Of a stretch of DNA of 64,000 bases, positions 35,701 to 38,700 are shown one piece after another. The position numbers are program-made. Source of the stretch: Escherichia coli (GTDB taxonomy: Bacteria; Pseudomonadota; Gammaproteobacteria; Enterobacterales; Enterobacteriaceae); NCBI RefSeq assembly GCF_003334315.1, contig NZ_QOWR01000001.1, one strand, 5' to 3'. Position 1 is the first letter of the stretch, and the number at the start of each line of letters is the position of its first letter.

Positions 35701-38700
35701 AACTGGCCCGCAAACTGGACGCAGTAGTAGAAGACTGCGTAAACGCCGTTGGCGTCGATCTCAACACTGCTTCTGTTCCGCTGTTAACCCGCGTGGCGGG
35801 CCTGACGCGCATGATGGCGCAAAACATCGTGGCCTGGCGCGATGAGAACGGCCAGTTCCAGAACCGTCAGCAACTGCTGAAAGTCAGCCGTCTGGGGCCG
35901 AAAGCCTTCGAGCAGTGCGCGGGCTTCTTGCGCATTAACCACGGTGATAACCCGCTGGATGCTTCTACCGTCCACCCGGAAGCCTATCCGGTGGTGGAAC
36001 GCATTCTGGCAGCAACACAGCAGGCACTGAAAGATCTGATGGGTAACAGCAGCGAACTGCGTAACCTGAAAGCGTCTGACTTTACTGATGAAAAATTCGG
36101 TGTGCCGACAGTAACTGACATCATCAAAGAGCTGGAAAAACCGGGTCGCGATCCGCGTCCGGAATTTAAAACCGCTCAGTTTGCCGATGGCGTCGAGACA
36201 ATGAACGACCTGCAACCGGGTATGATCCTCGAAGGTGCGGTGACCAACGTCACCAACTTTGGCGCGTTTGTCGATATCGGCGTGCATCAGGACGGCCTGG
36301 TTCACATCTCTTCATTGTCGAACAAGTTTGTGGAAGATCCGCATACCGTGGTGAAAGCGGGCGACATTGTGAAGGTGAAAGTGCTGGAAGTGGATCTTCA
36401 GCGTAAACGTATCGCCCTGACTATGCGTCTGGACGAGCAGCCTGGCGAAACCAACGCCCGTCGCGGCGGCGGTAATGAACGCCCGCAAAACAACCGCCCG
36501 GCAGCCAAACCACGCGGTCGTGAAGCGCAGCCTGCCGGTAATAGCGCGATGATGGATGCGCTGGCGGCGGCAATGGGCAAAAAACGTTAAACGCCCGGAC
36601 TGGCCCCTAAACCTGCGCGATAAGGCGTTCACGCCGCATCTGGCAACGAACGCCTTGCCTGACATAAAAGTGCCGGAGAATATCTCCGGCCTTTTTATTC
36701 CACAACCAAACTCATAATATATTCCGGCAATATTTATCACTTCATTAACAACTGAAACCTTAATTAAACATTAGCCAGTCCGGGTAATTCACTATTCGAA
36801 TTATATTTTCGCTGCGATATAACCTTGAGCCACATCAACATTGAGTCAGATTATTATTCAAACCAACATTCGCACACATTTTAAGTATTGCTGATAGAAA
36901 CCATTCTCATTATCATTGTGTTGTTGATTATTTAATCTCTCCTTTGTTGGCAAATCATCTGGTCTCATGTCGCTGTCAAACGCCCCATGAGGTAGTTATC
37001 CAGTTAATGAGAAACAAGTAGGCACCTATGCAATACACTCCAGATACTGCGTGGAAAATCACTGGCTTTTCCCGTGAAATCAGCCCGGCATATCGCCAAA
37101 AACTGCTTTCTCTTGGCATGTTACCTGGCTCCTCTTTTAATGTGGTGCGCGTCGCTCCACTCGGCGACCCCATTCATATCGAAACCCGTCGTGTGAGCCT
37201 GGTATTACGCAAAAAAGATCTGGCCTTATTAGAAGTGGAAGCGGTTTCCTGTTAATACGGTGATAACAACAATGAAAAAATTAACCATAGGCTTAATTGG
37301 TAATCCAAATTCTGGCAAGACAACCTTATTTAACCAGCTCACTGGCGCACGTCAGCGTGTAGGTAACTGGGCTGGCGTTACCGTCGAACGTAAAGAAGGG
37401 CAATTCTCCACCACCGATCATCAGGTCACGCTGGTGGACCTGCCCGGCACCTATTCTCTGACCACCATCTCATCGCAGACCTCGCTCGATGAGCAAATCG
37501 CCTGTCACTACATTTTGAGTGGCGACGCCGACCTGCTGATTAACGTGGTGGATGCGTCTAACCTTGAGCGTAACCTGTACCTGACGCTACAACTGCTGGA
37601 ACTCGGCATTCCCTGCATTGTGGCACTGAACATGCTCGACATTGCCGAGAAGCAAAATATTCGTATTGAAATTGATGCTCTGTCGGCGCGTCTGGGCTGT
37701 CCGGTGATCCCGCTGGTTTCAACCCGTGGTCGCGGTATTGAAGCGCTCAAGCTGGCGATTGATCGCTATAAAGCTAACGAGAATGTGGAACTGGTACATT
37801 ACGCACAGCCGCTACTCAACGAAGCAGATTCACTGGCAAAAGTGATGCCTTCCGACATCCCGCTGAAACAACGTCGCTGGCTGGGCCTGCAAATGCTGGA
37901 AGGCGATATCTACAGCCGCGCCTACGCCGGTGAAGCGTCGCAGCATCTTGATGCCGCCCTCGCCCGTCTGCGTAATGAGATGGACGATCCGGCGCTGCAC
38001 ATTGCCGATGCGCGTTACCAGTGCATTGCTGCCATCTGTGATGTGGTAAGCAACACCCTGACGGCAGAACCCAGCCGTTTCACCACTGCGGTAGATAAAA
38101 TCGTGCTCAACCGTTTCCTCGGTCTGCCGATTTTCCTCTTTGTGATGTACCTGATGTTCCTGCTGGCTATCAACATCGGCGGGGCGTTACAGCCGCTGTT
38201 TGACGTCGGCTCCGTGGCGCTATTTGTGCATGGTATTCAATGGATTGGCTACACGCTCCACTTCCCGGACTGGCTGACTATCTTCCTCGCCCAGGGCCTG
38301 GGTGGCGGCATTAACACCGTGCTGCCACTGGTGCCGCAGATTGGCATGATGTACCTGTTCCTCTCCTTCCTTGAGGACTCCGGGTATATGGCGCGTGCGG
38401 CGTTTGTGATGGACCGTCTGATGCAGGCGCTGGGCTTGCCGGGGAAATCCTTTGTGCCGCTGATCGTCGGTTTCGGTTGTAACGTACCGTCGGTAATGGG
38501 TGCACGTACGCTTGATGCACCGCGTGAACGTCTGATGACCATCATGATGGCACCGTTTATGTCCTGCGGCGCGCGTCTGGCTATCTTCGCAGTATTCGCG
38601 GCTGCCTTCTTCGGGCAGAACGGTGCGCTGGCGGTCTTCTCGCTGTATATGCTGGGTATTGTGATGGCGGTGCTGACTGGCCTGATGCTCAAGTACACCA

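Follow-up and report, generated by a model that had tools for sequence, protein, structure and literature searches.

The DNA upstream of feoABC, the ferrous-iron uptake operon of Escherichia coli, raises the question of where on this promoter the regulators act that tie its expression to iron and to anaerobiosis. Control of feoABC by Fur and FNR has been known since 1993 (Kammler 1993, as relayed by the papers citing it). A sequence-only reading of the window, i.e., the whole stretch of 64,000 nt of E. coli DNA analyzed here, assigned positions 36699-37027 to the feoABC promoter and proposed joint control by iron and anaerobiosis through a Fur box, tgatagaaaccattctcattatcattgtg, and a weaker FNR-like element just downstream of it, TTGATtattTAATC. 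The assigned interval is indeed the feoABC promoter region, as it runs from the yhgF terminator to the base before the feoA ATG. Both strings are located where they were placed (36892-36920 and 36924-36937, respectively), and the general idea of joint control is right and textbook knowledge, as far as the papers citing Kammler 1993 convey it. The transcription units that frame the region are as follows.

36672-36698, + strand: intrinsic terminator of yhgF (tex), consisting of an 8-bp GC-rich stem and a T run (terminator scan and sequence)
37028-37255, + strand: feoA (75 aa), with its ATG at 37028 (ORF list and RefSeq annotation of matching genomes)
37272-39593, + strand: feoB, Fe(2+) transporter permease (K-12 annotation transferred onto ORF 37260-39593)
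39593-39829, + strand: feoC (coordinates transferred from the K-12 annotation; the ORF ends at 39829)

The yhgF terminator marks the upstream boundary of the feo regulatory region, which is AT-rich with 36% G+C. The complete intergenic region between yhgF (tex) and feoA comprises positions 36591-37027 of the window, and a 501-bp stretch around the feo promoter was found in 5426 of 5426 complete E. coli genomes, where it is annotated as intergenic between yhgF (Tex family) and feoA. The gene order in K-12 MG1655 is ompR-greB-yhgF-feoA-feoB-feoC-rpnA. Pairwise alignment with MG1655 showed 100% identity for positions 36770-37035 and three SNPs within 36699-36770, one of which is located in the spacer of the ArcA/OmpR site described below. 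The sole length difference is a 19-bp indel in a REP-like element just 3' of the yhgF stop codon, which is outside the feo finding. Because the promoter sequence is identical to that of K-12, published K-12 experiments can be transferred to it base for base. Positions in U00096.2 are converted to window positions by subtracting 3501156 or 3501157; four papers yielded the same offset, and the 1-bp ambiguity stems from the differing coordinate conventions among them. The region is very probably the canonical sigma-70 promoter region of the E. coli feoABC operon, with a Fur array at the core promoter, a distal FNR site at 36825-36838, an upstream ArcA/OmpR site and a weaker second Fur box. The elements of the core promoter are listed here.

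36888-36893, + strand: putative -35 hexamer TTGCTG (3/6 matches), 17 bp 5' of the -10 hexamer (read from the sequence; 1.64 bits per column in 81 sequences)
36890-36923, no strand assigned: main Fur operator with overlapping sites in a 6-bp register (ChIP-exo footprint, phased consensus cluster and conservation)
36911-36916, + strand: putative -10 hexamer TATCAT, 5/6 matches to TATAAT (read from the sequence; 1.85 bits per column and 97% identity in 81 sequences)
36923, + strand: probable transcription start of feoABC, to within 1-2 nt (back-calculated from the ArcA position in Park 2013)
36923-37027, + strand: 5' untranslated leader of feoA, about 105 nt (from the probable start site to the feoA ATG)

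The main Fur operator encloses the box named in the sequence-only reading. Fur sites were scored by their matches to the classical 19-bp consensus GATAATGATAATCATTATC, with dinucleotide shuffles of the region as control. Lone 19-mers peak at 13/19, a value which is equalled by 20% of the shuffles and is not significant alone. Plain counting of Fur matches, either as single 19-mers or as the 7-1-7 motif, was undiscriminating and was replaced by a phased-cluster statistic and phylogenetic footprinting. Real Fur operators are composed of overlapping sites in a 6-bp register (Chen 2007). At feo, overlapping matches of 12, 13 and 13 of 19 positions start at 36890, 36896 and 36902, exactly 6 bp apart. 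This trio is the top-ranked phased cluster in the 64 kb, and 36 of the 5000 shuffled versions of the region (0.7%) equalled it. As a phased cluster, the Fur-like element exceeds what is expected by chance.

Occupancy of these bases by Fur is documented for the identical K-12 sequence. The Fur ChIP-exo footprint of iron-replete MG1655 covers 3538047-3538080, equivalent to about 36890-36923 in the window, and the ends of the box in the sequence-only reading are located 1-3 bp from the footprint edges. Information theory identified a pair of overlapping Fur sites (10.9 and 13.4 bits), centered at 3538059 and 3538065, which correspond to window positions 36902 and 36908 (Chen 2007). The Fur sites scored in that study cover both of the Fur boxes that Kammler et al. 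1993 had annotated, as that annotation is given there. Fur ChIP-seq, together with a feoA-lacZ fusion repressed by Fur chiefly in anaerobic conditions, was reported by Beauchene 2015. The proposed Fur box can therefore be retained with its exact coordinates, as the first-ranked phased cluster, the ChIP-exo footprint and the sites of Chen 2007 coincide with it; it had already been mapped. The operator is also near-invariant across 80 Enterobacteriaceae species. In ungapped alignments of 81 Enterobacteriaceae sequences anchored on the Fur core, the Fur/core promoter segment exhibits 1.52-1.85 bits per column compared with 0.74-0.99 in the flanks. The lower value of the segment is that of the whole ChIP-exo interval; the promoter spacer reaches 1.78 bits per column and the flank 5' of the -35 hexamer 0.99.

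The start site is placed at about 36923, since an ArcA site (36732-36752) is reported to lie at -191 to -171 (Park 2013). The putative -10 hexamer ends 7 nt before this position, which is consistent with Park 2013, and both hexamers were assigned from conservation together with the published ArcA position. A sigma-70 consensus scan returned no promoter at a threshold of 9/12; the feo promoter was missed because its hexamers total 8/12, and the -35 is weak (3/6). The start-site supplementary tables of Kim 2012 do not contain feoA. Folding of the feoA leader gave a z-score of -0.05, i.e., no significant structure, and an Rfam scan of 36300-37400 identified no family at threshold, the only sub-threshold matches being to the terminator/REP region. 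A riboswitch or attenuator in the leader was dropped on the basis of the fold z-score.

The Fur operator spans about -33 to +1 and overlaps the putative promoter spacer, -10 hexamer and start site. As its sites cover these three elements, Fur would repress transcription by occlusion of RNA polymerase. In this mechanism, Fe(2+)-Fur would fill the overlapping sites at 36890-36923 and, positioned on the spacer, the -10 hexamer and the start site, would keep RNA polymerase from the promoter, so that feo is repressed. Classical Fur-repressed promoters, e.g., those of fepA, fhuA and aerobactin, likewise carry overlapping Fur sites in a 6-bp register on the core promoter and are controlled by occlusion. 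Unlike these promoters, feo is also activated anaerobically, is repressed by Fur mainly in anaerobic conditions, and exhibits a second, upstream Fur box beside the activator site.

Two positions have to be considered for this activator, and they lie on opposite sides of the core promoter.

36825-36838, no strand assigned: FNR site TTGAGCCACATCAA with 9/10 half-site matches (Table S6 of Myers 2013, PWM and conservation)
36924-36937, + strand: "FNR-like" element TTGATtattTAATC, AT-rich initial transcribed sequence at about +2 to +15

FNR sites were scored with a palindromic position weight matrix (PWM) derived from the 62 other ChIP-bound sites in Table S6 of Myers 2013, with the feoA site left out. 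TTGAGCCACATCAA scores 15.7 bits on this matrix and ranks first among 63987 positions in the window. The same sequence is listed for feoA in Table S6, with a PatSer score of 14.6 and at an FNR ChIP-seq peak. The approximate peak center in Table S5, 3537996, corresponds to about 36839 in the window and is 8 bp away from the center of TTGAGCCACATCAA, compared with ~91 bp for the element of the sequence-only reading. In the main tables of the same study, the binned FNR ChIP-seq summit is found at 3538050, or about 36893, which falls between both candidates and cannot tell them apart alone; the Table S5 center does. A search for the FNR consensus with one mismatch produced 5 matches in the window with 2.2 expected, which is not significant by itself. 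Because such a plain consensus search is undiscriminating, the case for FNR rests on the PWM, ChIP and conservation.

The conservation profile differs between the parts of TTGAGCCACATCAA. Its half-sites exhibit 1.77 and 1.81 bits per column, its 4-bp spacer 1.00 and its upstream flank 0.40, and in 76 of 79 sequences TTG-N8-CAA keeps its register exactly or to within a 1-bp shift. Conserved half-sites around a free spacer are the typical signature of a transcription factor site. Published work presents FNR as activating feo. Among the expression ratios in the supplement to Myers 2013, feoA (b3408) has an entry of 0.136, quoted here as a bare number. TTGAGCCACATCAA had been missed by the sequence-only reading.

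TTGAGCCACATCAA is centered at about -91.5 from the probable start site. This would be a distal, class-I-like position and unusually far upstream for FNR: of 23 promoters that FNR activates directly and whose start site is known, 19 have it bound at -41.5 ± 4, and the single class I case in the same study lies at -60.5 (Myers 2013). As in class I activation by FNR or CRP (-61.5 and further upstream), a near-consensus FNR palindrome is situated 5' of the -35 hexamer in tight spacing to the core promoter, and a class I mechanism is what we infer for feo. Anaerobic activation would then proceed from the distal site at 36825-36838 in a class-I-like manner, with FNR contacting the C-terminal domain of the RNA polymerase alpha subunit.

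The spacing of these elements was followed across the family. One genome per species with FeoA was scanned, yielding 80 Enterobacteriaceae loci that include Escherichia, Salmonella, Citrobacter, Klebsiella, Raoultella, Kluyvera, Enterobacter, Kosakonia, Cedecea and others. For each locus, the top FNR PWM match and the top phased Fur cluster were taken from the 450 bp 5' of feoA. Of the 80 species, 76 have the FNR site and the Fur block 57.5 or 58.5 bp from each other, as they are in the window, and the distance to the feoA ATG varies across the 80 species from about -130 to -332. A fixed spacing between FNR and the Fur/core block, maintained despite a leader length that varies by up to ~200 bp, supports phase-dependent distal activation.

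It is extremely improbable that TTGATtattTAATC is instead a weak FNR site behind the anaerobic response of feoABC. The left half of the element matches TTGAT in 5/5 positions, and the binned ChIP-seq summit is only ~37 bp away. However, its right half, TAATC, differs from ATCAA at every position (0/5), so that against TTGAT-N4-ATCAA the element is a chance half-match, and the FNR matrix assigns TTGATTATTTAATC -13.5 bits, rank 7062 of 63987, which is background. The element is poorly conserved as well (0.74 bits per column in 81 sequences); TTGAT is found at the equivalent position in 23 of the 81 sequences, and in the 45 bp that follow the Fur core, every 14-mer of all 81 scores 3.6 bits or less against the FNR matrix. 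The center at about +8 from the probable start is incompatible with an activating position (-41.5, or -61.5 and further upstream). FNR bound at +2 to +15 would be expected to repress, which conflicts with its description as an activator of feo, and a far better, conserved and ChIP-associated site is present at 36825-36838. TTGATtattTAATC belongs to the AT-rich initial transcribed sequence, and its likeness to one FNR half-site is due to chance. An FNR site annotated at 36924-36937 would be displaced by ~100 bp and would imply repression, not activation. A function of the block GATTATTTAA(T/C) at 36926-36936 that does not involve FNR is unlikely too; the block might act as a low-affinity Fur hexamer that extends the array downstream, or as an initial-transcribed or discriminator element. 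Its GATTAT agrees in 5/6 positions with the Fur hexamer GATAAT, and the 19-mer at 36914-36932 shares the 6-bp register of the main sites and agrees with the Fur box in 11/19 positions, which is, however, the background level. Variants of GATTATTTAA with shifts of ~1 bp occur in Escherichia, Citrobacter, Salmonella, Enterobacter, Leclercia and Lelliottia (about half of the genera), and TGATTATT was found in 30 of 81 sequences, but the block is missing in Klebsiella, Kluyvera and Raoultella. Furthermore, the Fur ChIP-exo footprint stops at about 36923, and the block contains none of the sites of Chen 2007. An extension of the Fur array would in any case leave the FNR reading of the TTGATTATTTAATC block unrescued.

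The prevalence of -41.5 among FNR-activated promoters also bears on an arrangement with two promoters, in which FNR at 36825-36838 would be the class II activator (-41.5) of a second promoter starting near 36873, while the promoter covered by Fur would be FNR-independent. For Yersinia pestis, a pair of feo promoters has been proposed. For the E. coli sequence this arrangement is nonetheless very unlikely: positions 36861-36866 read AACCAA and offer no usable -10 hexamer, the promoter scan found nothing promoter-like, and 36859-36887 is only moderately conserved (1.02 bits per column). The conserved feature is the distance that separates FNR from the Fur/-10 block, and the start position used in the literature found is ~36923 only (Park 2013). 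This class II promoter was rejected for want of a -10 hexamer at the place required. The preferred reading continues to be distal activation, by FNR at 36825-36838, of the promoter that Fur covers.

Three further elements are located upstream of the core promoter.

36732-36752, - strand: ArcA binding site TATTTATCAcTTCATTAACAA, with T at the lower-case base in K-12 (supplementary tables of Park 2013; about -191 to -171)
36783-36805, + strand: predicted NagC operator GGTAATTCACTATTCGAATTATA (FITBAR prediction at K-12 3537939; prediction only)
36840-36858, no strand assigned: weaker upstream Fur box directly next to the FNR site; GATTAT core at 36848-36853 (site of Chen 2007)

The ArcA site is given by Park 2013 as TTGTTAATGAAATGATAAATA. 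OmpR was found by EMSA to shift a fragment containing TTATCAtttcaTTAACA, equivalent to 36734-36750 in the window (Gerken 2020). The corresponding window sequence, TTATCAnnnnnTTAACA, overlaps the ArcA site and differs from K-12 by one SNP in the spacer. The ArcA/OmpR site at 36732-36752 is distal and would also contribute to activation. NagC was considered as the cause of the conserved block after the start site and was rejected, as the predicted NagC site sits at 36783-36805. The overall organization is that of K-12 feoAp (Fur, FNR, ArcA, OmpR): no base differs between 36770 and the ATG, and the Fur footprint, TTGAGCCACATCAA and the ArcA, OmpR and predicted NagC elements are all the same, bar the one spacer SNP in the ArcA/OmpR site.

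The upstream Fur box corresponds to a separate 10.5-bit Fur site centered at 3538006, or 36849 in the window, which covers one of Kammler's two boxes as these are given in that study (Chen 2007). It matches the consensus in only 11/19 positions. Its conservation is moderate (0.88 bits per column), although the GATTAT core is conserved, and it falls outside the listed Fur ChIP-exo footprint. The sequence-only reading does not include this box near 36840-36858. We tentatively consider that the family-wide geometry might encode anti-activation, with Fur at the upstream box blocking the distal class I contact of FNR besides the occlusion of the -10 hexamer; this is a possibility to which we give limited credence.

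The locus, the Fur box and the FNR site are already known and mapped genome-wide in K-12, and nothing about them is novel. The value of the analysis is corrective with regard to the position of the FNR site, to which a small but solid cross-species point on spacing is added. The strictness with which the spacing of the distal FNR site is kept across the Enterobacteriaceae is the only mildly interesting point. If the anti-activation reading of the geometry is true, feo would join a small number of natural promoters on which FNR acts in the class I manner from far upstream.

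Among 5426 complete E. coli genomes, a match over 80% of the query was absent in 29. In the urinary isolate E. coli EC488 (NZ_CP109874.1; locus L082, 3155-3907), the match ends about 15 bp past the yhgF terminator and is followed downstream by an IS1 transposase gene and then by rtcB/rtcR. The feo promoter together with feoABC thus appears to have been lost from this strain through an IS1-associated deletion.

The yhgF-feoA intergenic region of the window is nearly identical to that of the K-12 reference outside a REP-like palindromic element located directly 3' of the yhgF stop codon (36606-36625, and 36614-36691). 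Relative to its K-12 counterpart, this element has several substitutions as well as a 19-bp indel. Searches of the REP-like and terminator stretch against Rfam returned only sub-threshold matches, namely naRNA4 (26 bits, with 59.5 needed) and STnc390, the latter falling on the yhgF terminator. Further downstream, the feoA leader contains a mini-ORF of seven codons (36967-36990; ATG TCG CTG TCA AAC GCC CCA TGA), for which no obvious Shine-Dalgarno sequence was found and which probably reflects chance.

Scoring of the window with the FNR position-weight matrix also identified matches other than the FNR site of the feo promoter. The second-ranked match, TTGATTTCAATCAG (21091-21104), scores 12.3 bits and carries a single mismatch to the consensus. 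The eleventh-ranked match, TTGAGTCAGATTAT (36841-36854, 9.0 bits), is located downstream of the true FNR site, at a distance of 16 bp, and shares bases with the upstream Fur box. This match could represent either a second, weak pair of FNR half-sites or simply the Fur box itself. The published K-12 Fur ChIP-exo table that gives the feo footprint additionally lists a peak in the ompR-greB intergenic region (K-12 3534739-3534772), which corresponds to about 33582-33615 in the window.

Across the Enterobacteriaceae feo loci, Cedecea davisae and C. neteri stand out in that no FNR site occupies the position 58 bp from the Fur box where it is usually located. Both exhibit palindromes with perfect consensus (TTGATCTAAATCAA and TTGATTTAAATCAA, 21 bits) that precede the Fur box by approximately 220-230 bp and lie at the following distances from the feoA ATG:

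about -387, C. davisae (L069), FNR palindrome
about -376, C. neteri (L079), FNR palindrome

These far-upstream palindromes may be part of another promoter, or of a divergent one. The length of the feoA leader is variable, being about 130 bp longer in Klebsiella indica (L070). The Fur box lies 138 bp from the feoA ATG in E. coli and only about 65-70 bp from it in Enterobacter, Leclercia, Lelliottia, Silvania, and Huaxiibacter (loci L039-L041, L047, L055, L059, L062, L068, L071, L072, L075-L078, and L080). In these five genera, the FNR-to-Fur spacing is the same as elsewhere, and the leader is about 70 nt shorter because the Fur box is located nearer to the ATG.
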